NCBI GenBank assembly: GCA_001724245.1
Contig: MEDX01000679.1
Location: forward strand, 1 to 48,450
Reading direction: 5' to 3'
Length of the DNA stretch: 48,450 nucleotides
Source: Fonticula-like sp. SCN 57-25
Lineage: Eukaryota
Shown: positions 1 through 47,199 of the stretch, one piece after another
Layout: every line of letters begins with the position of its first letter
Numbering within the stretch: position 1 is the stretch's first letter
Translations under genes and position numbers: made by a program
Notes under the pieces: model-generated
What the model was told of the DNA's origin: nothing
Database searches by the model: none
The model's input: the letters and a program-made list of their open reading frames with translations, nothing else

Positions 1-22
1 CACGGGGCAACAGCATAATCAA
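1..22 (+). repeat. Left terminal inverted repeat (22 bp, starts CACGG)
   Basis: Perfect inverted match to 5860-5881. A 5'-CA start is typical of P-superfamily termini. Confidence 0.92.
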
Positions 23-26
23 GCGC

Positions 27-37
27 CCACGTGGATG
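27..37 (+). repeat. Left subterminal inverted repeat ccacgtggatg (candidate transposase-binding site)
   Basis: Reverse complement catccacgtgg occurs at 5833-5843. Confidence 0.7.
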
Positions 38-341
38 AGGGATATTTGGCTGATTTGGCGCCACTTTACCCACATATGTGAGCGCGTTGCCTTGAAGAGT
101 AATCATCTGGCTCTTTGCGGTAATCATTTTTTTTTTGTCGGTTGTCTATCCGCCGAATCTTTTTTTTTCCAGATCGCGTTCCGATTGCCCGAATTCTTCG
201 GATCCTCGAAGTGGTCATCACCGACATCGATTGCTTGATTCAGTTCCCTCCCTTTTGCTCGTCTACAGTACGCTTTTGCGCTCGCGGACGCCCAACACCT
301 CTTGCTAACACCTCTCGCTTGCAGGGCGCAGTAGGATTATC

Positions 342-2570
342 ATGGAAAAGAAGCAAGGTGGCAAGGTGGAGGTCGTCGTGCCGGGTGTCATCGATGAGGC
401 GCGTGGAGATGGCGTTCCGATCGGGCGAGTCCTGTGCTGGACTTACAAGAAGCGCCGCGCGACCAATTCGATCACCCTTGACGATAGCGGCTCAGTAGTG
501 TACAATATTGAGTACAAGTCAAGGAACGGTAAGAAGCAGTGGCTCGTATCTGGCCGCACGGTGACAAGAGCGGCCGATCTAATCCGCGGGCGCAAGCAAG
601 GGGGCCGTGGACCGGCTGGTTGGGTTGTAGGCCGCCTTCCAGGCAAGCATTTGTTTGGCCTTCACGACGACGGGCCTTCTACAACCGAATCCACCGGCGG
701 GTCCGAGCCCGCTGGCCTGGAGGAACCCCTGACGCTTGTACCCGACCCGCCTAATGTAGCTGAAGACAGCGACGACGAGAGCGGATGGGAAGAGGAAGAA
801 GAAGAAATGCCCGAAAATGAACATTCAACGGGGCCCGTGCCCCTCACACGCGCGAGCAATTTCTTGCTTCCACACGTGTTTGGGCTAAAGGACAATGATA
901 TCATTGACCACCTACCGCACCCGACAAAAGATTGTGCGGCGTCAGTTCTGCACCCCGCGAAACTCGAGCGGGTACAATGGAAGCCAATGACGAGAGCGAT
1001 GGCGGAGGAGGTAGCGGTCTTCTCAAAGTCGAACCGCATTAAGAAGAGTAGCAAAAAGAGCGCAGCGGGGCAAGCTGTTGCATCTCGACTGACTGGCCAG
1101 TTCGGCTGCAGCGTTACCGTTTCAGCGTGGCGAAACCAGCTCACCAAGATTTCAACAAAGGGCGGATTGGTGTCAGAGTTGCTGGCCAAAACACGTCATG
1201 AGCGCGACGCGCCGTGCGAAGGCGACCCACACGCACTAAACGCCATTGACGCGCTCCTCGTGTGCAATCACCAGCAACGTGAGGATGTGTTCCGCTATGT
1301 CGCGGCACGCTGCTTGGGAAGCGACCCATCGCGCGATTCCTTCTATCGCGCGATATTGCTTCTGCCTGGCGCATTGCGGCATGGTGAGACCGTCACCGGC
1401 GATGTCTTTGCAACGACAACCGGCAGTATGGTCACCGATTTTTTGTCTTTGCTTGCATTCGGCCAGATGCCAAAGCGCAGCATCTTTGCGCACACGATTT
1501 TGGCCGGCTGCCAACTAGGGTTGCAACCTCCCGCGCAGGGCGTGTTCCCAGAGTTTGTAAAGTCGTTCTATTCTTCAGTTTTCTTTTATGCCCGGGGCAA
1601 CGGGTACAACGCGATGCGCGGGCACAGCGGGTTGCGCCTGGCGTCCATGAACGTTCCCGGCATGCCGGCGGAATCGACGATTCGGGCATACGTAAAACGC
1701 CAGTTGAAGACAGTGCCAGCCATGGCAGAGAGGGGCATTGATATGACGGCAGTGGATGATGCGGTCAAGGCCGCGCCTGCCGACACCCTTCTGTGCGCGC
1801 AGCTCGATGGGCGCACGATTGACCACCGCGGCGGTGGCGATGTCGACCATGGAAGTACGATTAGAACCTCCTTTATCAATCTATACCGCCGGCATCAGCA
1901 TTGACTCACATCTCATTGGCGGGGTAGATGCTCAAGTAGGGAAAAGCTCCCGGAAAAGCCATTTGGAGCGAGTGGCGGCTGCGACTGCAGCACAGAACGC
2001 CGATGATCCCGTCGCGTTAAGGCAGCTGGCAGTTTCTGCCCTGAGCGATGTGCAAGGGGACATGGCCGCTTTTCGTGGTGACCTTAATAAGCGCCTATCT
2101 AAACTGGTAGCCAAGCAGGAGCGCTCCGCCGACGTCGCAAGGGCCCGCAAGTTGGAGGAGGTCCGTGAAATGCTTCGACAACTTGACGACGTTGCGGGTC
2201 GTGTTCCCTTAGTAACCCACGGGGTGGCGTACTTGCCCCGTACAATCGTCCGCCTTAACCCTGGTAGGTACTTTAAAAGGCAAACAGCGAAAGCCCTGGA
2301 GGACAGCGATCACTACCTTTCGAGGTGCGTCGAAAAGGGCATGTGGGGATAGATAAGGGGAGGTGATAGAGGGAGAGAGAGGAAAGGGAAAGGGAAGGGG
2401 AAAGAATGATATGGTGGTATCAAAGTCATCGTATAGGCAGGGAGATGCCTGGGAATCGAACCCAGATGCAATGCACATAACGAAACGTGCTGCAAAACCC
2501 ATCGTCTCTTCAAGAAGCCAACACGGTGATTTGAAGCGAAAGATACACACATACACACATGCACATACAC

Positions 2571-2614
<44 letters not shown>

Positions 2615-5161
2615 ATAGCCCTATGCAGTATAACTGAGATTAGGAATTCTAACGCGTACGCTTCTGTGAATAGATCCGGGAAAAATATCTTGTCCTTAGC
2701 GGGTTTACTCGGTGCGGGCGCACAGCTGTTTAAGGAGAACGAGCGGCGCAAAGCAATCAGCTACCCGCTGTATTTCGCAATGTGGAGCGTACCCGAGCCG
2801 GAGCTGAGACTGTTTAAAGGCGCAGCGCAAGGCATACCACTCTACACCGGCGATAGTCTACATTTTAGCAAGGGCGAAATAAACGCACGAGTAGGGGACA
2901 AGGCGTGGAACTTCACGATCCCCTATTTTAAAAGCGGAGATAAGATCTTTGACGTCGTGACCGGCGAAGCCGACATTGAGTCGTGTGCGCGCGCCTGCCT
3001 TATTGCGGCGGTCGAGCAGAGGGAAGTCGTACACATCGCGCAATTCGTCGCCGCGTCTAGCACGTTCGTCATTTACGCGAGGACAATATCGGCCGAATTG
3101 AGACAAGCTGCGTTGGATATGCTGAGCCGCATCGAGGACGAAAAAGCCGTCATGAAAAGAGTGCACGAACTACGTGCTCTTAATCGAACCCGCATCACGC
3201 CCTTGTTCTGCATGTCCGCGCCATCAACTTCGCCGCAATGGAGCGACACCGCGCTCGTGGGCAAGGCCCTGTCGGAGCTGCTCATTGCCGCGGACGACCT
3301 GCTGCGAGTGACGCCGACGGAGATGGTAGTGGTGATGGTCAGCGACACGGCGCGCGAGTCCACGTCGGAGGTGGGGCTCATGCTGACGGCCAAGGGCAGA
3401 GGAGGCGACTCCATTCGTCAGGCGTTCAAGCTTGTGTCGGACCGCGTGCTCGCTACCGCCGGGGACTCGCGTGACCACCTCACTGGCGACCACTCGGCTG
3501 TTGCCGAGGTCACTTGGCCAGACTCCTGCTCGCTGCCCCCCTTTCTCTGCGAAGCCCCGTCGCCGCCCCATGTTAAAGTCCACCCGCTCGCCCACATGGC
3601 TGTGGATGGGGAACACCATGAGCTCCTTCTCCGTGGACGTCGTCAGTCGGAAAACGCGGATGTTGAGGATGTGCCCCAGATGTTGTCGGAGGCCATCCGC
3701 ATGGTGCGCAAGGAGGTCTCAAATATTCTTCATGATATCGCACCGGTGCGCCAGTGGACCGTCGACGTAGTGGCACAGGCGGCGGAGAGCGTTGGTGGTG
3801 CAGAATGGTCGGCGCTGGTCCAGGCTGCAGCCGAGGATGTGGAGATGACCGCTGATGTTCCTGCGCACGAGCCGACATTATCAAGGAAGAGGAAAAAGGG
3901 TGAGAAGCGGGCAAGTAAGAAAAAACAGAAAACAAGTTGCGACATTGATGGAGAGTTGGGTGAGATAGAGAAGGGGATACGGGAAGAGGAGGGCGATGAA
4001 GAGGACAAGGACAAGGACAAGGACAAGGACAAGGACAAGGACAAGGACAAGGACAAGGACAAGGACAAGGAGTTAAAGAGAGCGCAACTTACGGCGGCGC
4101 TCGACAAGTTTCGAGAACTGGTGTTCGCCTTGCGTGCGCAAGAACTAGAGTGGAAGTGCCAGGGCGTTCGTTTCTCGTTCGCCCAGCATTTTTACGTCCC
4201 ATGCCCGCGAGGTGGCCGCGTCGCGTGGACTTCGATTGATGCCGGCCATCTGCTGAAGCGCCTTCGGTCAGCCACGGGATGCGGACACGCTGCTGCCAAG
4301 GAAGTCCCGCGCCTCCTTCCAAAGGACATTCTGGAAGCGGCGGCCGCCGACGACAAGGCGCTCGCCGCGATCCTGCGCGGGGCTGACCCGCAGTCGGTGC
4401 GATTCGCCATTTACCTCTTCTCGGAGAAGGTGGAGGCGACCATCCGAGCTGCCAACGCAGCCGCCGCCGACATTATCGCCCGCTGCCGCCGGTTTTGGAT
4501 GGCGCACGACCAGCGCGGCCTGACCGCCGAAACGCGACGCAGCCATCTGCTCGCCATGCGCTCGTGGCTGCTGGAAGGCGTCGACTTGCGCCAGTGGTTG
4601 AAGGTGGGGGTGCCTAGCTACGTGAAGGGCATTCCCATCGACACCTTCGAGGCCTTGGTGGCGTCTGCCGAAGCGGTCGCCGCTTTGCAGGCGTTTTCCC
4701 GTGCGTTTAACGCGAAATTTCTACGTGGAATGCTAACAAAAAATGACGCTATAGCATTTTTGCATACCCGCGCGCTTGGCTCGGATAATGTTGAGTGCCT
4801 ATTTTCCATCGTGCAGTCCCACGTGGGTACTCCGACCGCATCGAGCGCCCTGCAGTTGTTCGGCAAGCTGGTGCTGGAAAGGCGGAAGGCGGCAGATCGT
4901 CTGCTGCCGTGGCGTTATAAGAGGAGAAAGGCGGCGAAGTACCTTCATCGTCGCGATGAGGTACAACACCGCCGGTCGTTCAACACGCCATCCTCCGCCG
5001 CCAATACCACCGATACCACCATTCGAGCGCAACGGCCGCAGAGGGGATCCCTCCTCAAGGCCTTCATGTCGGCGCCAGAAGCGCGGGCCGCCCAGCGCGG
5101 AGCGGAGGGCGACCTCATAACTCCTCGCCAGCACAACAAGAGGCGCGCCGCGCGTGTATAA
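342..5161 (+). CDS. Large P-element-like DDE transposase, ~1465 aa; predicted exons 342-1854, 1928-2324, 2674-5161
   Basis: Introns 1855-1927 (gtacga..gtag) and 2325-2673 (gtgcgt..ttctaac..aatag) join three ORF-track ORFs in frame. P-transposase-like motifs occur in the expected order: GYNAMR..MPAESTIRAYV (cf. AYxxLR..LPSxxTLxxW), AQLDG (D1), AVDGE (D2), DAGHLLKRLRS (DxxHLxKxxRN), DPQSVRFAIYLFSEKVE (cf. KMxVxxAxQLFSxxV), LHTRALGSDNVECLFSIVQSHVGTPT (cf. SQDxLExxFSxIR..PT). A 5'UTR intron is predicted at 268-324. Confidence 0.8.
2571..2613 (+). repeat. (ATAG)n microsatellite, ~10 units, inside transposase intron 2
   Basis: Seen directly; preceded by a CA-rich tract. Confidence 0.95.
4004..4069 (+). 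repeat. (GACAAG)11 coding microsatellite encoding (DK)11
   Basis: Perfect hexamer tandem, in frame within the transposase. Confidence 0.95.
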
Positions 5162-5229
5162 TATGTAAATGTTTTTCTGTATCATAGCTGCATACCTTGT
5201 GTACATTATTGTATAATTATCCTTGTAAA

Positions 5230-5772
5230 CTATGTATTAAAACCAACATGAAAGGGAATACAAGTGACCGAAAACTGGACCACAACGAGCTTAGTAAAAA
5301 TGCACCAAACCATCTCTAAACGTACCATAAATACTAATACAAAAGTCGTAGAAGAAGGTGAAAAGGGACGTGGGTACAAACGAAGAAGGCTCAACAGGAT
5401 GCGGTCATAGGATGCCATCCGCACGACAAAGGAGACACGGCAGCCCGCTTAACGTGCCCTGTGCGAGGAAAGGTGAGCAAACGCAGTGAAAACAGCAGCA
5501 TGTCGCACCGAGCAATTAAATAAAACATATCGCTCTCATAACATACCAAAAACAAAAAGTTTCCGGCACGTTGGCGTCGTCTGTACGCGATGGAGAGCAG
5601 CGTTCGGATCAACAACCAAGATTACCGAGCATATGAAATATTAAAAAACTCGAAATCCAACTGCCGCCCGCCCTTCCGACACTTGAAAATTTTCAATAAT
5701 ATGATACCTGTGTATCTTGTGAACATGTTAGTACCACTCAAGTGTCCCCCGGATGCGGTCACCGCGCACCAT
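5230..5772 (-). ncRNA. Putative spliced minus-strand transcript within the transposon right end (non-coding or micropeptide)
   Basis: Host-style intron signals on the minus strand at 5708-5769, 5459-5508 and 5275-5325, plus a weaker one at 5581-5625. No long ORF after splicing. Transcript boundaries are unknown. Confidence 0.35.
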
Positions 5773-5832
5773 CGAGAATCCCGCGCGGGCGTTCGCGCTT
5801 GCCGCGCTCTTTTCAGAGGGGCGTAACGATAC

Positions 5833-5843
5833 CATCCACGTGG
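5833..5843 (-). repeat. Right subterminal inverted repeat
   Basis: Inverted copy of 27-37. Confidence 0.7.
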
Positions 5844-5859
5844 TCCGATCCGTAATTTT

Positions 5860-5881
5860 TTGATTATGCTGTTGCCCCGTG
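5860..5881 (-). repeat. Right terminal inverted repeat
   Basis: ttgattatgctgttgccccgtg is the reverse complement of 1-22. Confidence 0.92.
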
Positions 5882-5929
5882 AAGCCAGTTTGCAGATTGC
5901 AATTTGCAGGATAGTTTGCAGGCTCGAGG

Positions 5930-7619
5930 ATGCTGGTGTCCACGACGGCACGGCGGTCGGTGCGGCTGCTTGGCGTGGCGCGCCTCGCGGCAGCCGACGC
6001 TGCGCGGCAGTGCATCGGCTGCGGAGCGCACCTACAGGTCACTGACCCTGCGGCGGCCGGGTATGTACCGCCGAGCCGGCTGGTCACTTGGAGCGGGGCC
6101 TCACGCCGCGCTCGCGAGCGACTCGCATCGCTGACGGCGGGCGAGCCGGGCGAGGCACCGGCCGACGAGCCGGTGGCCGACATCAAGGTCGCAGAAGAAT
6201 CGATGAAGCTTGTCATGGCGCCGCGGTCAGAGTTCCAGGAGCTCGATCCCACGCTTGTGACGGACGACATGGCCGTGATCTCGGCGGGCGATATCAAAAA
6301 GGCGCGCCGCGAGCTCAAGTCGGCGACGCCTCGCGTCTCGTGCCAGCGCTGCTATCACCTGAGCAAGTATCGCGAGGTGCTTTCAGTGTCGGTGACTGCG
6401 AGCGACTATGAAAAGGTGCTCAGGCAGATCCGCGAGCGGCCCGCGCTCATCGTGCTGGTGGTGGACGTGCTCGACTTTCCGGGCAGCCTGCTAAGCCAGC
6501 TGGCCGCAACCGTTGGCAAGCATGAGGTGCTTCTCGTCGGTAACAAGGTCGACCTGCTGCCAACGGACGCGCGCCGCGTCGGTCTCAAGCACTGGCTCGA
6601 AGGCGAAGCGCAGCGGCTGCTCGACAGTACGCGAGTCGGAAAGTTTTTATTGTGCTGATGAATGTCGATAGCGCGCATCCGTGGTGTGCACCTTGTGAGC
6701 GCCCGCAGCGGCGAGGGCGTCGACGACCTTTTAAAGGACATTAAAGAGTCTCGCGGCTCGCGGTCAGTGTACATTGTGGGCTGCGCCAACGTGGGCAAGT
6801 CGGCTGTCATCAATCAGATCCTGCGCCGCGACGGCCGGTCGTCGCGGACGCTCACCACGTCGCCTGTGGCCGGCACAACGCTCAACCTTGTGCGCTTTAC
6901 GCTACGGGACGGGACTGTTGTCCACGACACACCCGGCCTTATCCCCGACAAGCCGCTCCTCCACAAGGTGCGCTGATTGCCTTGCCACTTTGCGTCTTTT
7001 ACTAAATCTTTTATAGTACCTCACGCATGAAGAAATGGAGCTGGTGATGCCCACCAAGCCGTTCAGCGCGCCAATGTTTTCACTGGTGCCCGGCCGCTCG
7101 CTGCTGCTCGGCGGCCTCGGTCGGATTGACCACGTTGGCCCCGCTCCTTCGGTGCTGCTGACGGCCTTTGTCGCGCCGGGCGTTACGCTGCACGTAACGC
7201 GCACGGACACGGTGGACTATTTTGTCAAGAAGCACATGTCGAGCCGGCAGCTGCGGCCGCCGCTCCCGCGCGACAAGTTTGGCTCGACCGAGGAGGGCGC
7301 CCTCCCGGTCAGTGTCCCGCCGATGCCGCCGGCCGAGCAGATCGACTTTGCCGCGGCGCCCGTCGTGCCCCACGGCTCCAACTCGTGGCACGCTGCGCTT
7401 GACGTTGTGTTCCCCGGCCTCGGGTTCGTGTCCGTCACGGTGCCGCCGGCGAGGGCTACCGACAGGCAGGCGTCGTTCGACGCCGACACGGCCCTGCGCG
7501 CGTTCTACCCCGAGGGGCTCGGCGCCGTCACGCGGAGGCCAATGCTCCCGTACGAGGCGCAGAAGCGCGGGCCAAAGGAGCGCGGGGGGATGCACGCGCG
7601 CGTCTACTACAAGCCGTGA
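5930..7619 (+). CDS. NOA1: Circularly permuted GTPase, NOA1/YqeH/Gep3 family (mitochondrial ribosome assembly); introns 6627-6671, 6968-7016
   Basis: Split zinc motif CIGCG..CQRC; VVDVLDFPGS, NKVDLLP (G4), SA (G5), GCANVGKS (G1), GTTL (G2), DTPG (G3), LGGLGRID. The Arg-rich N-terminus resembles a mitochondrial presequence. Confidence 0.9.
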
Positions 7620-16290: not shown

Positions 16291-18019
16291 ATGACCGAAC
16301 CGCCGCCGAGCTGCCCGGTGTGCGCGCTGGCGTTCGCGGCGGGCACGCCAGAGCATGAGCTCAGCGGCCACGTCAACCGCTGCCTGGACGGCGGCCCTGC
16401 GGACGATGAAGCACCGCCTTTGGTTCGAAGCTCGTCTGCGCCCGCCGTCCAGAGCAGTCTACTCTCGTTCATGACACGGCGAAGTGGGAGCACGCCAGCA
16501 TCGACGCCGACCGCTACGACGCCCAAGCCAGGGTCAGTCGAGGAGAAGGAGGAAGAAGAGGGAATAGAAGACGACGATAATGGCAGGGGCGATGTGGACG
16601 TGCGATCCCCAGCACGTCGCTGCCCGTTCTACAAGTGGATCCCCGGGACGACCATCACCGTAGACGCCTTCAACTATGGCCGCCTGGCGGGGTGCACCGC
16701 GTACTTTTTGTCGCACTTTCACTCTGACCACTACGGCGGCCTATCAAGCACCTTTTCGCACGGCAAGATATACTGTTCCTCCATCACGGCCTCGCTCGTC
16801 GCGTCCCAACTACGTGTCTCGTACGTCCTCGGTGCATCGCACTCATGCATCTGACCCTTTTTGCAGGCCAACGCACATCTGTCCTTTGGAACTGGATCGC
16901 CCACACGTGGTTGACGGCGACGTCCGTGTCACATTAATTGAGGCCAACCAGTACGCTATTTTACTTTGCTACTGCCAATGCTCACCGCCGCCGCCAGCTG
17001 CCCCGGCGCCGTCCTGTTCCTGTTCGAGCTGCCCGACGGCGCGTCGTACCTGCACACGGGCGACTTTCGCGCGTCGCCGCGGATGCTACAGCACGCGGCG
17101 CTCAAGCGTTTTGCCACGTGGTCAGCTTCTGCTCCCCCAGACGATGCGGCGCCCCTGCCGTCGCCCGCCAAGCGCTCGCCGATGGACGTGTTCCGCGCTT
17201 GGGCCCCGCAGGCCGCCGTCGCTGTCGCCGACCAGCCGGCGTCGCTGCGTGAGCTTGTACAGAAGACGGCGTCGCCGCTGCTACGCGTTGCAACGGACCC
17301 GTCCTTTAGCGAGCGCGACCGCCAAATGCTTCTCGGTACGCATTGATATTTTTCGTGCTTTGCTGAGTTGGTATTCAGATATGCCGCGCGGCGGCGCTGC
17401 GCGTCTCACTGGTCTCTTTCTTGACACGACGTACTGCCGGCCCTCGTACGTGTTCCCACCACAGGAGCGCGTTATTGCGCACGTACTCGAGACGGTGCGC
17501 GCGTGCCTGGCCGACAACAAGCGAACGCTGTTCCTCGTGGGCAGCTACCAGATCGGCAAGGAGCGCGTGTTCCTCGCCATCGCCGAGATGCTAAAGTGCC
17601 GCATTTACGCCGACGCGCGCAAGCGGGCAATGCTCGCCAAGATTGGCGATGCGCACCTCGCGTCGCTGCTGACGGACGACTCGACGTCGAGTAACCTACA
17701 CGTGCTCCACATGGGCGCGATGAACGCCGCGCGGCTGTCAGAGTACCTCAAGATGTACGCGAGCCAGTGGACGTCGCTTGTCGCCTTCCGCCCGACGGGC
17801 TGGACGCACCGCGGCGGGGCAGACGTCGAGCTCACAAGGCCCGCCGTCCACGGATGCGTAAAGATATTCGGGCTGCCGTACTCGGAGCACAGCTCGTTTC
17901 TCGAGCTCGAGTGCTTTGTGCGGTCTTTGAGGCCGACCCGCGTCATCCCGACTGTCAACGTAGGGGCGCCGGCCGAGCGCGCGGCCATGCAGGCGCACTT
18001 TGACGCGTGGCTTGGTTAG
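16291..18019 (+). CDS. DCLRE1A: DNA cross-link repair nuclease SNM1A/PSO2 (UBZ + metallo-beta-lactamase + beta-CASP); 3 introns
   Basis: [76 protein letters not shown]. Confidence 0.92.
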
Positions 18020-26193: not shown

Positions 26194-29100
26194 CTATAGG
26201 TTTGATTCGCTCCCAAGAAATACACCTGCCGACTTGCAATTCTCTGTAAAGCGCTGCATCTCGTTGCGTAATGTGGACACGGTGTGGGTCCATCCGATAG
26301 ACTCTGCCGCGTCGATGGCGCGCTGTAGAATGGCATGCGCCTGCACGTGGTCACCCTTGATCATGAGGTAGTGCGCGCGGTGCTTGAGCGAGCAGACGCG
26401 GGCGCACTTGAACGTCCGGGCAAACTCGGCCATGTCGGTCATCCACTTTTCGAGCGACGCCTCGATGGGCGCGTTCGCCGGCAGCACCTGCGAGCCCTCG
26501 GCCGGCCTCAGCTTCTGCTCGAGAAGACGCAGGTACACCTCCGTCACAAACTGGAACGTGACCAGCTCCTGAGTCGGGATGAGGGTGAGGAAGTCCTTGG
26601 GCGGCTGGAGCGACTCGACCAGCTCGAGGGCACCGCCAAAGTCACCGAGGCGCGCCATGATCAGCGCGCGGAGCGTAGAGTGCATCGTGCGCAGGTTCGG
26701 AAGGCCGCCTTCGGGCCAGCTGATCTTGTCCGCCTCGGCAAGCTGCTCGCGGAGGTTCTCGGGCGTGGGCTCGACAGAGCGGAAACGAACGATCTGGCGC
26801 GACACGTCCAGCATCGTCATCATGCGGCGGTCCTTATCAACGCCGCCGTTGCTGACTTGCATCAGGAGACGGTCGGCTTCTAAAAACGCAACTGTGGTCA
26901 GCCAAGCAGGAACAAGACATTAATCGGCGCCGTACCGCCCATCATCTCGCCCGTGCTGCAGTACACCGACGAGGCCATCAGCAGGTTGAAGCACCACAGG
27001 TTGGTGTAGCCGGTGGCGAGCCTCATATCGGCAGCCTGCTTGAGCAGCAGGACGCTCTCGGAAATGTTGCCCTCGGCAAACGAGCGGAAGCCGAGCGACA
27101 CAAAGAATCGCGCGAGGGCCGAGCGGTTGTCCGTGTCGGTGAAACGCATGCTGTGCATGAGCGACACGCGACGCAGGGCACTAGAGAAACAGCATGAGTA
27201 CACGGGCGGCGCTGCCAAAGGCGCTGGAACGTACTCGGAGAGCGACATCAGAGGGCGGCGCATGAACGGGATGCGCATCTGGACGAACGTGTTGGAGAGC
27301 TTCATGCACACGACGGCATACACAGCGTCGTTGCCGCTGCCGAGGATGCACCTAGAGTGGGTGTTAGATCACCAATGGCAGCACAATCGAGTCGTACGCA
27401 TTGAGCGCCGTAAGGTGGGCCGCAATCTTGCGCAGGCGCATGCAGTTGGAGGACGACTTGGTATCGTTAAAGGCATCGAGAGAGTTGCTCTGACGGGCCA
27501 AATGTGAGCTAAACAAAAGTGTACACAAGGAAATTCCGTACCATGTAGAGGAACATTGCGGTATTGTCATAGTACGCGGTCGTGCGGCGGAACTTGATCA
27601 CCGACTTGCAGAAAAAGCGCGCCAGAGGCATGTGCAGCAGCAGGTGCTTGAGGCCTTGCGAGACAATGGTGTAGATGAGATAAAGGACATTTTGGGACTC
27701 GAACAGGCGCTGGAAGCCGAGCAGCTCGATGCCTTGCACGGCCCATTTCTCCGCGTCCTGCAGGTGGCTCGACCGATAGGCGTAGACCATCGACTTTGAA
27801 ATGAGACCGACGCTCTTCATCGCGGACGAGCCGTCGGCGGGGGCGGGCACCATCGCCTGCAGCAGGAGCAGAGAAATGACCGCGATGAAGGAGAAGTACG
27901 CGCCCACCAACCAGATATTCACGACAAAGTCCATTATAATGTTGATGACGTGCGCGAGGCCAAGCACCACCACAGAGTCAAACTGACCCATCGAGAACTG
28001 GCTCAGCGAGAACGACTGCAGCGCGCGGCCCAGCGGAGCTGACGTCACCTCTGTGCTCGGCGTGATGTACGAGAAAGAAATAGCAGACATGCTCATCATG
28101 AACAGCATGGCGCCCTAGAAACCTCATTGTCAGCAACCCCGTAGTATTCCACAATCACGCTCGCACCATCATGACCGTGACTGTGCGCGCCACCGTGCTG
28201 CCCATCGACTGCGCGGTGGTCGGTCGCCCGGATCGTAACGACGCGATCTGGTCTTGTAAGGCGGCGATTTCCAGCTTGTTTTGTTCGTTTTCCTACGAGC
28301 ACGTGGGTTTAGCACAATCGAGGCCGAAATATTTCTTCCGCACGCACCCTTTTTAACCTGCCGTTCGCCTTGATCAAAAAGGACATGTATTCGACAGACT
28401 TGTTGAGGATGGCTCCCTTGGAAACGCGCTTGCCCGACGGCAGATTTACAGGGAGCATGCTCCGGAGCGTGCCAATGGCATCATTGATGGTCGCCTGGCG
28501 CTTGCGCTCGCTCGCATTGTGGCGGTCCTTGAACGTCGATTTAGAATTTGGGTTCGACTGGTCCGACCCGCTGTCATCGTCGTCGTCGTCGGCCTCGCCG
28601 GGAGCGTTCCTAAAGTTCGCATAGTACTGGCCGCTGCCGCTAAAGCCGAACGACTCGTCCTCGGTCACGCTGTCTGAAGGGGTCGCCGTCGATGTCGACG
28701 CGGGCGACGTGCTCTGCTCGCTCGGCGACCACGACTGCTCAAACGGCGAGTGCGGGACCACGGGGACAGTGCCGGGGGAAATGTCAAACTTGATGTTTGG
28801 GGCGAACGCAAAGGCCGAGCGGAAGGCAACGTCGTCGTGCATATCGGCACTCTCAGCCGTCGAGTGCAGCGGCGGAATCAGTACATCCGCCGAGTCGTCT
28901 GCGCATGCGCGGCACCCGTGAGCAAAAGCAAAAGGAGTTTTACCCGTGGAACATACCGATGGGAAGCATGGAAAAGTGGCTAGCGGCCTGCGGCAGCGCG
29001 CCAAAGTCAATTGGATAGGCGGTCTCCTGTGCCGACGCGGCCACCTGCTGCTCAAAGTACTCAAATGTCTCGTTCTTGAACGGTGTCGTGCCACTCATAA

Positions 29101-33687: not shown

Positions 33688-34250
33688 TCAACGGCCGATC
33701 CATCCTTCTGTATCGTATCAACTTGTTGGCTGGGCAACGATACGGTTGCACAATTACTGCCATGTATGGCGCTAATATACCAAATTCATTTTCCCGCGTT
33801 ACTATTCGCACCACCACCAATCTTAAATTGGTGCGTGTTTCCAAAAGTGCAACAAGCCACAGGAAAACGTGAGATTTCGACTTTGCATGTTGCCGTCCAA
33901 TACGACGCGACGCCGATCGGACTTTGATGATGTAATCTCGCTTCGAATGTTTATTTGCAGGTATGTTGACCACGTGGACTATTGTTTTGATTGGTGCGCT
34001 TAATCTTCTTGTCCAATCAGCCGGTATCAGATTGCCGGTCACCGTGCATTTTTTTCCTGCCTGTGCGCTCCCCACCACAACGAGTGAGGGATCCAGCGCT
34101 GCCGTGTGCCTCGTTTTTCCTCTTGGGGCGCACGCTTGATACATACTGCACTCGCCTCGCCTTGCGTGTGGTGTAGAGTGTGGCAGGTTCTTTTCTTCTT
34201 TAAGAGATTTCAGCGATCGTTTCTAGCGATTCGTTCGTTGCGGTGACGGG

Positions 34251-43227: not shown

Positions 43228-46200
43228 CTAGAAAGCGACCTTTGCGCTTGGCGTTGACAGCGTGTCGTAGCACGGCCCGCAGAGCCTTACGGCGCTCTTC
43301 TCCCCAAACTTTTCGATTGGCAGCTTGCGCGAGCTCGGGAGGCAGTTTGAGCACGCAATACGCCCGCAGTGGCGGCAGTGATGCTTGCGCTTGTTGACCG
43401 TAAACTTTGACGCGCAGATCTGGCAGTTTGGCAGGTCCACCCACACCGGCGGCTCCTTGATGAGCTCGAGGATCCTGCGCTGAAGCAGTGACCGCCCGGG
43501 CGTCTCCTGCTCGAGCTGCGGCGTCACAACGTCCAGCACGCTCACGCCGTCGGCATTCTTGGTCATGAGCGACGCGCCGCGCGGCACCAGCTCGAGCGCC
43601 ACGTACTCATTCACCGCGAGGTACGCGAGCAGCAGCGCGGTATTGCCCTGATAGTCGGCCTACATGTCATGCTATGTCAGTAATCCGCCCCTAAATGCAA
43701 ATTATCCGCGCGTACGTCATCGATTGCGACGCCGCTGTCGACGAGAAGGTTGAACAGCGGCAGGCAGCGCTTGCCGAGCGGCGCGCCAAAGCTGGCGAGG
43801 AGGTGCAGCGCCGACTGCCCCATGAGGTTGACCTCGCCGAGGAAGAGCCCGCTCCCCGACGACGCAATCATCATGGCGACGTCGGGCTGCCCCGCCGAGA
43901 TGGCGGCGAGCAGCGCCGTCGCGCCCTCGATGTCCTTGAGCACGGGCGACATGCTGTGCGGAAGCAGCAGCGACACCATGTCGACGTGACCGGCCGTGGC
44001 GGCCTCGTGCAACGGCGTGCGGCCGCGCGTGTTCTGCAGCGTGCACGCCTCAGGGTCAACGGCAATGATGCGCCGCGCCGTCTCCAAGTGCCCCTTGTGC
44101 GCAACAACGTGCAGCGGCGTGTCAAACGTCTTGCTCCCGGCAGTCTGCTTCGGGTCAACGGAAAGCTCATCGAGCAGGAACGCAGCGCCGTCATAGTCGT
44201 CGTGCTTGACGGCAAACATGAGCAGCGTCGAGCCAAACGCGTCAACAGCGTCCGTCGAGAACCGGTCAGAGTGCGCGGCGAGAACGGCACCACACGACGC
44301 CTCGCGAAGCTGGTACACGAGCGAGTACACCGTCTGGCCGCTCGCATTCCGCTGCGTCACATCGGCCTATACGCCTGTGTCAATAAAAGTAACAAAAGAA
44401 AAGATGCGCACGTCGGCCGCGACCAGCGCCTTGACGGCCTCGGGCTGCTGCGCCTGCACAGCAACATGCAGCGGCGAGTCACCCGCCTCGTTGCGCCGGT
44501 TCACGTCCGCCTTGCGCTGAACAAGCTCGGCCATAATATCCGACGCGCCAATCCGCGCGGCAAAATGGAGCGGCGCATCTGCAGACAAAAGTCAGATTTC
44601 AGATTCATAGTACAGGTAACGCGTTGCGCACCTCGCTGCGGCGTGCGGCCGGGCAGGTCGCCGTTCACCTCGGCACCGGCGAGGATCAAATACAGCGCCG
44701 CTGCCGTATCGCCCACCTCGAGGCGGTGCTCCAGCAGCGTGCGTCCCTCTATTCGCCCACAAAACGTCAGCCAAACAAACACACATAAACCATACGCACC
44801 TGGGCCGGGCGACGGCTTTCCGTTCACGTTCGCGCCGTTCTCGACGAGGACGCCGACGCAGTTGCGCGCGCCCACAGCGAGCGCGTGGTCGAGCGGCGTC
44901 TGGCTGCCCTCGGGCTCGTCGACGCTGGCACCGCGGGCGACCGCCGCGCGCGCCGCCTGCGGCATGTCATGCTCGATGGCGAGGAAGAGCGCCGACGCGC
45001 CGTCCGCCGACACGGTGTCGATGCGCGCGCCATTCTCGAGCAAAAAGACCGCTGCGCGCTCCTGCTTGCCCGTGATGGCGCGGCAAAGCGGGCTCTGCGC
45101 GGCGTTGGCGGGACCGCACGGCGCGTCCACGTGCGCGCCCTTGGCGAGGAGCGTCTCGGCAAAGGAGAACTGCTCGCCGGCGAGGCTCAGCCAAAGCGGC
45201 GAGTCGCCGTTCTCGTCGACGGCGTTCAACTCGAGGCCGGGGACGTCGAGCAGCATCGAAACAATGTCGGTCAGCTTGTGCGCCATTGCAATGTGCAGCG
45301 GCGCATTGCCTGACGAGTCGCGCTTGTTCACGTCGGCGTTGTACTTTAGCAGCAGCGCCACCATCATAGTGTGGTTCTGGAGAACGGCAAGATGGAGCGG
45401 GGCTGTAGTGAAATGGTAAGAAAATGAGCAAAGAAATCATATAATGCGCACTCTGAGACTCGCTCGTCGCCGCGTTCGGGTTCGCCTTGTTTTCAAGGAG
45501 GAACTCTGCGGCAAACTCGTTTCCTTCAAATGACGCGCGGTGCAGCCACGTTAGCCCAGCGGCGTTGGTTGCCGTCTGGATTTGGGCGCCCGACGTGAAG
45601 AACAGGTCGGCCATATCGCGGCGGCGGCTCGTGAGCGCCATCCAGAGCGGCGAGTCGCCCGCGGCGTTCTGCGCGTCGACCCTGATCAGCGGCTGCTGGC
45701 ACAGCAGCGTAGCCAGCGCCATGTCGCCAAGCGACGCGGCAATGTGCAGCGCCGTGCTGCCGTCATTGTACGCAAGCTCATTGGGAACGGGGCTGTGTGG
45801 CAAAAAAAGTTAGACCAACATTAGACGCGAACCGGAAGCGTACGAGCTGATGGGCGAGGTGGGCGTCTGCGCCGGGCCGCTGAGCAGGGCGATCGCGTTC
45901 ACGTTGACGCCGTTGATGAGGAGCTCCTCGACGACCTGGGTGAGGCTCTGGAGGCACGCCACGTGGATCGGCCAGCGGCCGTTCTGGCGGTCCTGCACCT
46001 CGCGGTTGGCGCCCTGGCGGATGTAAAAGAGCGACGAGGGCGTGTCGCCGCGCAGCAGGGCGCGGTACAGCGACGAGTGGCCCGTCTTGCTGTCAACCGC
46101 CTCCATGTCACAGTGGTGCTCAACAAGAGACTGCGCGACAGACATGTACCGCAGGCTCAGGGCGACCTCGAGCGGCGTCTGGCCAGACTCGTTGCGCGAG

Positions 46201-47199
46201 TTGATCAGCGCAAAGGCGTCGTCGCCCAAAAGGTACAGGAAAACGACGTCCTCGCGGTTCTGCTCGATAGCAAAGTGCAGCGGGTACGAGGACTTTCTGC
46301 GGTAGATCTACGGAGAGAGCTTGTTAGACAGCCGCGAAAGTAGCCGCATTCGTACCTCGGCGAGGAGATTAGAGTCGAGAAGTGCGAGCGATTCTTGTGA
46401 AAGAGTGTCAAATTCATTGACAATAACCTCAAGAGCGCTCTTTCTCAGATCGTCGGCGTGCACGTCATCGGCGGCCTTGAGCAGCTGGGCGCAGTTGAGC
46501 CGCGTGATCATGCCCTTGAGCGCGCTCTGGGGACAAACACAGCGTTAGCTTGATCCCCAAAACACAGCACAACGCACCTCTGTGACGGTGAAAAGACGGC
46601 TGATCTTGAACTTGTGTGAAAGCAGCATGAGCCCCTTGACATAGTCGGCGTCGGTGCTGAGGGTGATCGCGTCCGTATACAGGAACTGGACCAGGTCTGT
46701 GGCCATCTCTACCGGCACGTTCTCGCCCAGCATAATAGACTGCGGCAACGCCTCCTCCTCTGTTCCCTCCTTCAGCATCGACTGGAAAATGGTCGAGCGA
46801 GCCGCCAGCACGAGGCGATGCGCGGGGATTGTCCGCCCCTCGGCGCACTCTAGCTTGATGTCGCTAAACTTGCCCGACTTTGCCAGCTGGGCACACGTGC
46901 GAGTGAGATCGCCCACAATGCCGCCCGACGTGGACGTCGGCGAAGCTCCTCCCGCATTCGTGGCGTCCACCGTACGCTGCAGGTTGGCCAGCGACTGCGT
47001 CAACTTGGCATACTTTTGCCGCAGAAGGGAGAGGTTCTTCGACAGGACGCGAACCTGCTGCTCGGCCGTCACACCGGGCGCTGAACGAGGTCAAAGTACG
47101 TCAATCGTCAGTATATATGACAAACATCAGCGCGTCAGAGCGCAGAGCAGAGCGCGTACGGATCTCGGCACTCGCGGCCGCATCAAAGTCGTCGCCCAT
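43228..47199 (-). CDS. ANKFY1: Rabankyrin-5 (coiled coil, BTB, ankyrin repeats, FYVE)
   Basis: LSLLRQKYAKL; BTB FSDIKL..IPAHRLVLAARS; many ankyrin repeats; C-terminal FYVE W..CQIC..F....RKHHCRHCGRIAC..C..VRLCGPC. Confidence 0.92.

Follow-up and report, generated by a model that had tools for sequence, protein, structure and literature searches.

Do the two unequal ends of a transposon from a Fonticula-like eukaryote form a signal that is read when the element moves, and which protein would read it? The element in question occupies positions 1-5881 of a 48,450-bp stretch of DNA (contig MEDX01000679.1 of Fonticula-like sp. SCN 57-25; this whole stretch is called the window below). An earlier note on this DNA pointed out that an 11-bp word recurs in inverse orientation near the two tips, at distances that differ by 12 bp, likened this to the Drosophila P element and to the 12/23 rule of RAG, and suggested that a rule for pairing left with right ends may be conserved.

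Evidence on the architecture of the ends comes from the one copy of the element present in the window. The pattern is real and non-random, and it is probably functional, as the bipartite and asymmetric end of a young, P-superfamily-like eukaryotic transposon. We propose that the element is an autonomous cut-and-paste DNA transposon, from a divergent clade of the P superfamily that lacks the THAP domain. As to the 11-bp word, our tentative reading, to which we give a probability of about 0.45, is that it may serve as a secondary site, to which the transposase of the element itself binds through a two-fold symmetric part while the ends are paired.

Architecture of the two ends

The element is bounded by perfect terminal inverted repeats (TIRs) at 1-22 (plus strand, beginning CACGGGG) and at 5860-5881 (minus strand), complementary at 22 of 22 positions. 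A scan of the whole window for the TIR at up to three mismatches found no place beyond these two, with 0.01 expected. Inside the left TIR there is a 4-bp spacer, GCGC (23-26), followed by the 11-mer CCACGTGGATG on the plus strand (27-37), the first eight bases of which (27-34) make up the palindrome CCACGTGG. At the right end, an exact copy of CCACGTGGATG on the minus strand (5833-5843) is separated from the TIR by a 16-bp spacer (5844-5859). Both spacers are direct readings of the sequence, and every one of the coordinates in the earlier note proved exact. The palindromic core is centred 30 bp from the tip on the left and 42 bp from the tip on the right, an offset of 12 bp, which corresponds to about 1.1 turns of the helix, and the two ends, measured from the tip through the 11-mer, are 37 and 49 bp long, respectively. 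As 8 of the 11 bases belong to the palindrome, it is only the 3-bp extension ATG that gives the 11-mer an orientation.

Members of the P superfamily typically generate an 8-bp duplication of the target site. The first base of the left TIR is also the first base of the window, so that the left flank and the target-site duplication fall outside it; the right flank begins with AAGCCAGT. The TIR could, in principle, extend further outward, but not far, because a host open reading frame (ORF) opens 34 bp past the right TIR, with its first ATG at 47 bp.

The degree to which the inner match exceeds chance was estimated by shuffling both subterminal regions with dinucleotide composition preserved, in 2000 trials for each region size, and scoring any shared inverted word of at least 11 bp. 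Such a word appeared in 2 of the 2000 shuffles of 50-bp regions, in 3 with regions of 100 bp, in 11 with 200 bp and in 91 with 400 bp, in the last case partly by way of T-runs. The 11-mer match is beyond chance as long as no more than about 100 bp are searched. That the likeness of the two words is an accident without meaning could be argued from the frequency at 400 bp and from the octamer CCACGTGG, which is common in this DNA. Against this stand the 2-3 successes in 2000 within 50-100 bp, the joint probability of finding the octamer in both 50-bp subterminal regions (about 1e-5 by our arithmetic, from the rate of 4 in approximately 42.6 kb outside the element), and the agreement, in the inverted orientation, of three further bases. 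An accident of this sort is very improbable.

A comparison of the first 400 bp of the element with the last 400 bp in reverse complement yielded just two matching blocks of more than 8 bp, namely the TIR (E=8e-9) and the 11-mer (E=0.03), and no similarity was detected between the left and right spacers or between the sequences interior to the 11-mers. Each end thus consists of a conserved block, an unrelated spacer, a second conserved block and an unrelated interior, with sharp edges, an arrangement that suggests a bipartite recognition signal and is unlike the remains to be expected of a longer repeat after neutral decay. Descent from such a longer repeat deserves consideration all the same: the 11-mer would then be the remnant of a TIR of at least 37 bp, split by a 12-bp insertion or deletion and by divergence, and neither the site nor the lengths of the spacers would be under selection. 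Each end can be described as part of a single inverted repeat with an interruption (22 + gap + 11), TIRs in the P family are usually 30-50 bp long (PMC3688188), and, with one copy visible, selection cannot be demonstrated. Neutral decay, on the other hand, predicts graded similarity, whereas here the blocks match at 22/22 and 11/11 positions with sharp edges and the four adjacent bases of the spacers agree at one position of four. The copy, moreover, looks very young (see below), which leaves little time for full divergence of the spacers beside 33 perfect flanking bases. We consider a decayed TIR an unlikely origin of the pattern.

Several smaller observations concern the same regions. The tip heptamer CACGGGG (1-7 and 5875-5881) and the CACGTGG of the site core (28-34 and 5836-5842) agree at 6 of 7 positions, a comparison made post hoc with a rough chance level of about 0.01; the inner word may be an inner near-copy of the tip motif. 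The heptamer GTAATCA occurs at 99-105 and 120-126, 21 bp apart, and resembles ATAATCA (15-21) of the inner TIR, while CGGTAATC (118-125) recurs in inverse orientation at 5620-5627 (E=1.8). These copies may represent further weak subterminal repeats, or noise. The predicted single-strand folding of the two ends does not differ from that of shuffled sequences (z of -0.20 and +0.38).

A divergent transposase of the P superfamily

The element is filled by three long plus-strand reading frames, which can be joined into a predicted three-exon gene (splice sites read by eye). Exon 1 (342-1854, with a GT donor at 1855) would encode an N-terminal module at residues 10-60, a P-like region of the helix-turn-helix type, and the first strands of the RNase H fold; it is followed, after an intron of 73 nt (between 1854 and 1928), by the coiled-coil-like exon 2 (1928-2324), with a weak match to DUF1664 (E=0.02). 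A second intron of 304 nt (between 2324 and 2629) contains an (ATAG)12 microsatellite. Exon 3 (2629-5161) would encode the remainder of the RNase H fold together with a P-like insertion domain, and includes, at 4002-4071, a perfect microsatellite of 11.7 units of AGGACA that is translated into a DK run. With the coordinates joined and the frame checked, the model gives 1,480 codons without an internal stop.

The earlier note had taken the P element as the relevant comparison, and the transposase bears this out. Taken alone, the frames of the window have no Pfam match at E<=1 and no sequence match in PDB, and it is for the lack of the Pfam match that the relationship must be called distant. The 848-aa frame, however, used as the query of an exhaustive HMMER search, collected 78 proteins at E<=0.001, with residues 520-790, approximately, as the conserved part. 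A profile of 47 sequences of this family matched the Drosophila P transposase in PDB (6p5a, E=1.7e-6) over chain residues 317-444, a stretch that spans the D-x-x-H and KQ-V--A---FS motifs, and a profile of 76 sequences found the same stretch at E=1.1e-4. In a language-model Atlas, the clusters nearest to the frame are P-transposase families (score 0.90), which we take as a lead only. By its sequence profile the catalytic half is a distant relative of the P superfamily, with the insertion domain as the part that aligns to the P transposase.

Domains of the P type in some of the relatives also point to the P superfamily. Among 32 long relatives examined at E<=0.001, Pfam found YqaJ in 11 and TNP-like_RNaseH_N in two (both over the curated cut-off), and neither TNP-like_GBD nor THAP in any. 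At E<=0.1, the 76 family members yielded YqaJ in 15, TNP-like_RNaseH_N in seven and TNP-like_GBD in one; THAP was not among the 25 families listed out of 32 matched, each of the unlisted ones being found in at most one member. In the alignment, no GTP-binding motif of the NKxD type is evident in the family profile or in the window protein at the place where P has NKSD. Two other families were looked for as well. The piggyBac transposase has no Pfam match in the window frames, and the base that follows the right TIR is not in a TTAA; RAG1/Transib likewise gave no match in the Pfam and PDB searches of the window proteins.

Alignment by hhalign is strong for exon 3 against 15 long relatives (E=5e-20, Prob 99.3%) and collinear, if weak, for the C-terminal half of exon 1 against the N-terminal region of the long relatives (E=0.018, Prob 2.5%, 134 columns). 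The latter region has at its end the motif VDGKKI...GDVDLWG, to which QLDGRTI...GDVDHGS corresponds in the window protein, and further into the N-terminal half of RNase H, LVFML...DGQW corresponds to VVVMVSD...AVDGEHH. The candidate catalytic residues, all encoded on the plus strand and placed by alignment, are a first D in QLDGRTI (codon 1806-1808; alignment with the long relatives), a second D in AVDGEHH (3605-3607) and an E in DNVECLFS (4793-4795), accompanied by a D(2)H motif, IDAGH (4238-4249). The candidate D, D and E and the D(2)H motif are conserved in alignments with the relatives. An alternative choice of the first D, in MVSDTAR, was dropped once the alignment of long relatives pointed to QLDGRTI. 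Guided by the motifs of P and THAP9, we take the C-terminal half of exon 1 to comprise a P-type helix-turn-helix region and, after it, the initial strands of RNase H, which would include the first catalytic D; the assignment of D, D and E to strands presumes the same motifs.

The N-terminal half of the RNase H fold appears to be split by a large insertion. In the window protein this insertion (the gap 1855-3330) amounts to about 365 aa and consists of the coiled-coil-like exon 2 and some 235 residues without a family match. At the same place, many of the relatives have a YqaJ-like exonuclease domain, to which the insertion of the window protein is unrelated; among the carriers of YqaJ are P0008, P0026, P0029, P0033, P0035, P0041, P0043, P0064, P0065, P0071 and P0073. 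YqaJ has been reported alongside ISL2EU/PHIS elements (PMC4482050), and our search of the literature found no paper that joins YqaJ, the P element and transposase.

The remark of the earlier note that the DNA-binding domain differs from that of P is borne out in so far as THAP is lacking: neither THAP nor any other Pfam domain was found in four pieces of the N-terminal 640 aa, or in a homologous protein, P0080, even with the threshold relaxed to E<=10, and the region has no sequence match in PDB. P0080 is 45% identical to the exon 1 protein over 97% of its length, and the two have the module at residues 10-60 in common. These are the only carriers of the module found in a large protein collection (a word-based search, which is weak evidence), and jackhmmer added none from the 80 gathered proteins. 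The N-terminal module of exon 1 is, as judged by these searches, specific to its lineage.

Public records bear on the age of the copy. A 520-aa protein identical to that of exon 1 (P0079) is on record for six contigs, and a 478-aa protein from a different contig (P0001) matches the beginning of exon 3 at 98% identity, departing from it solely within the (AGGACA)n, or DK, repeat; it is the only near-identical protein that is public. The copies or alleles therefore differ in the DK repeat, possibly with a frameshift. The perfect TIRs, the open frame, the identical exon 1 proteins of six contigs and the 98% identity of P0001 together make the copy look young and its ends probably functional.

Within the window the element has no second copy: the best blastn match between the element and the rest is 24 bp at 87.5% identity (E=0.21), and an 11-base pattern of the tip, at up to two mismatches, is found 13 times with 21.5 expected. 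The scan of DNA for relatives covered bacteria and archaea, which is a long shot for a eukaryotic element. A protein-pattern search of bacterial and archaeal contigs gave 201 pattern matches and no confirmed relatives, and a 20-base match to the TIR in a Methylobacterium contig was set aside as chance, as it diverges right after the pattern, lacks the octamer, and is of a kind of which about one is expected by our arithmetic.

Comparison with other bipartite ends

The spacings that the earlier note ascribed to the P element, and their likeness to 12/23 signals, are in print: the 10-bp sites of the P transposase lie 9 and 21 bp inside the 31-bp TIRs (PMC7776569), and the THAP site is reported to occupy bp 53-63 at the 5' end and bp 41-51 at the 3' end (PMC3688188, citing Rio 2002). 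The sources conflict on polarity, PMC7776569 giving 9 bp for the 5' end and 21 bp for the 3' end, and PMC3688188 having the longer distance at the 5' end. The present element resembles P in the superfamily of its transposase, as assigned by sequence profile, in the combination of a short perfect TIR with a single internal site whose distance differs between the two ends, in the difference of 12 bp (the sites start at 53 and 41 in P by PMC3688188, and at 27 and 39 here), and in being filled by an intron-containing transposase gene. It differs from P in that the site is nearer to the tip and has a palindromic core, while the THAP site of P is not described as palindromic; in that THAP is not found; in the apparent split of the N-terminal half of RNase H; and in the lack of an evident motif at the place of NKSD. 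Primary work on the P element reportedly also has the longer distance at the 5' end, and Mullins et al. are said to have reported in 1989 that the two P ends are not interchangeable.

Unequal spacing is not peculiar to P. The ends of piggyBac consist of terminal 13-bp and subterminal 19-bp inverted repeats with spacers of 3 and 31 bp (PMC2532691). Its 19-bp internal repeat is palindromic and is bound, at one end only, by a dimer of the C-terminal domain of the transposase, and in cells a pair of identical left ends (LE35/LE35) shows no activity, in contrast to the asymmetric pair, which is active (PMC7351741). The two elements agree in their formal layout, which here reads 22 + 4 + 11 on the left and 22 + 16 + 11 on the right, and in both cases the internal repeat is palindromic. 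The transposases are unrelated, the spacers of piggyBac differ by 28 bp rather than by 12, and the duplicated motifs of its right end are not seen here. As an analogue of mechanism, piggyBac would nevertheless be the best model for the ends of the window element.

Galileo, a member of the P superfamily, likewise has subterminal binding sites for its transposase (THAP sites), several at each end and within TIRs of 0.5-1.2 kb; the first of them begins the series at about 70 bp from the tip (PMC3688188). RAG/Transib signals are similar to the ends discussed here in being bipartite, in having spacer classes separated by about one helical turn, and in an outer block that starts with CAC. The protein family is different, the spacers there, between a heptamer and a nonamer, are 12 or 23 bp and here 4 and 16 bp, and the inner block here is an 11-mer, palindromic and identical at both ends. 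In the IR/DR ends of Tc1/mariner elements such as Sleeping Beauty, the inner repeats lie approximately 165 bp inside long inverted repeats. The present element recalls them in the relation of the inner repeat to the tip motif (CACGGGG and CACGTGG, in the post hoc comparison mentioned above), and differs in that the inner repeats of Sleeping Beauty are deep within long inverted repeats and its transposase is unrelated.

What might read the inner site

If the 11-mer is read by the transposase, the mechanism may be envisaged as follows. The outer 22-bp TIR would be read at the tip by the catalytic core, and the inner 11-mer would be a secondary protein-binding site, used while the two ends are brought together and occupied by the same protein through a dimeric DNA-binding part with two-fold symmetry. 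Owing to the 12-bp offset, of about 1.1 turns, the two ends would not be equivalent in structure, yet the site would face roughly the same side of the helix at both, and a left-right pair would be favoured over left-left or right-right, as has been shown for piggyBac and proposed for P. We infer from the layout that the site may be bound, that the transposase may be its binder and that the spacing may be of importance.

Several observations weigh against this scheme. Degenerate additional copies of the 11-mer were sought in the subterminal 400 bp, and there are none under two mismatches, with those at hand overlapping the site itself, so that each end has one site. In the N-terminus, which presumably binds DNA, neither a fold nor a family could be recognised. 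The polarity of the ends, with the short spacer upstream of the gene, seems opposite to that of P by PMC3688188, and the reverse is true by PMC7776569. Galileo sites are symmetric, because they lie inside long TIRs (PMC3688188). Finally, CCACGTGG is a generic E-box/G-box palindrome, enriched throughout the window, with four of its seven sites outside the element.

The proposal of the earlier note that the rule of pairing is conserved between this element and P is not supported: no computed result speaks for it, and the symmetry of Galileo, which shows that spacing need not be unequal in a member of the P superfamily, the spacing of piggyBac and the polarity all speak against common descent of the arrangement. 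The 12-bp difference is one among many possible values, observed once.

Because of the four octamer sites outside the element, a factor of the host is a serious alternative reader. The hexamer CACGTG is the canonical palindromic core of E-box and G-box sites, which are bound by dimers of the basic helix-loop-helix (bHLH) or basic leucine zipper (bZIP) class. The 11-mer would in this case be the site of such a host dimer, acting either as an accessory factor at the ends or through a promoter or enhancer, with the left site serving the transposase and the right one possibly the flanking gene, and the spacing would have no role in pairing. In the window, CACGTG is found 26 times, seven of them with the C...G flanks that complete CCACGTGG, whereas 0.89 copies of the octamer are expected and none of 100 shuffles reaches seven. 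The sites in the element begin at 27, 4819 and 5836 and those outside it at 17114, 33970, 39235 and 45959.

None of the four outside sites carries the full 11-mer, the closest being 10/11 at 45959. Two of them fall within Pfam-supported coding ORFs (DRMBL, 16664-18016; ankyrin, 45813-46307), and for this reason a part of the enrichment may reflect codon or composition bias, which dinucleotide shuffles do not model. The other two, at 33970 and 39235, lie in AT-richer stretches without a Pfam-supported ORF, and one of them adjoins CCAAT-like motifs. Outside the element, CCACGTGG may be a regulatory word of the host or an effect of composition. A second element between 33970 and 39235 was considered and rejected, as there are no terminal inverted repeats at that place. 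The third octamer of the element (4819-4826) is within the coding sequence of the transposase, 24 bp past the candidate E codon, and is probably incidental, since the relative P0004 has other residues at this position and cannot encode the octamer.

The reading of the site by the host also draws on the genes of the window and on P itself. The host encodes bHLH proteins, among them the product of a gene on the minus strand at 28312-29094 (HLH, E=7e-15), whose basic region reads RHNASERKRQ and which is relevant as a sign of host factors of the E-box type. In Drosophila, P-element DNA is bound by a host bZIP heterodimer, IRBP18/Xrp1 (according to the title of a reference in PMC7776569). Besides, the left site is upstream of the ATG of the transposase (342), and the right one is located 93 bp upstream of the ATG of a YqeH-like gene. 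This gene, for a ribosome-biogenesis GTPase of the YqeH/NOA1 type, is represented by two exon-like ORFs (5882-6655 and 7017-7616; TIGR03597, E=1.1e-31 and 1.8e-7) with the first ATG at about 5929; the right TIR ends 47 bp upstream of it, which places the element in the 5' region of the gene. Promoter function would nonetheless account for one end and not for exact 11/11 inverted copies at both, including 3 bp beyond the palindrome, and the location of two outside sites in coding ORFs means that the enrichment may be partly compositional. We think it rather unlikely, on balance, that the 11-mer is a site of a host dimer. Our literature searches found nothing relevant on the TIR sequence, nor on CCACGTGG in connection with transposase.

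Among the genes of the window are ones with SH3, EH, SUN, ankyrin, BTB and bHLH domains, and no Rfam family or tRNA was detected near the insertion.

Returning to recognition by the transposase, unequal bipartite ends as such are already known from P and piggyBac; what is new is the concurrence of a P-type core, the lack of THAP and a palindromic, E-box-like inner site. One far-reaching interpretation is that this clade, from a eukaryote that is not an animal, exchanged THAP for an unrelated, dimer-forming module that reads a palindromic 11-mer, and kept, or invented again, the 12-bp offset of P, equal to one turn of the helix, which would then be a geometric requirement of P-type transpososomes. 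We regard this as improbable. If it were true, a 12/23-like rule of pairing would be a property of the transpososome and not of the binding domain. Should the site be an E-box or G-box of the host instead, it would provide a second case in the P family, after IRBP18/Xrp1 on P itself, of a dimeric host factor recruited at transposon ends.

How cut-and-paste transposases discriminate between left and right ends, and keep like ends from pairing, has been solved in few systems, namely the 12/23 rule of RAG, piggyBac and, in part, P. A young and apparently intact P-like element, with ends of 37 and 49 bp and a binding domain other than THAP, would offer a compact substrate outside Drosophila, with which one could ask whether the offset of the P type is a requirement of the catalytic core.

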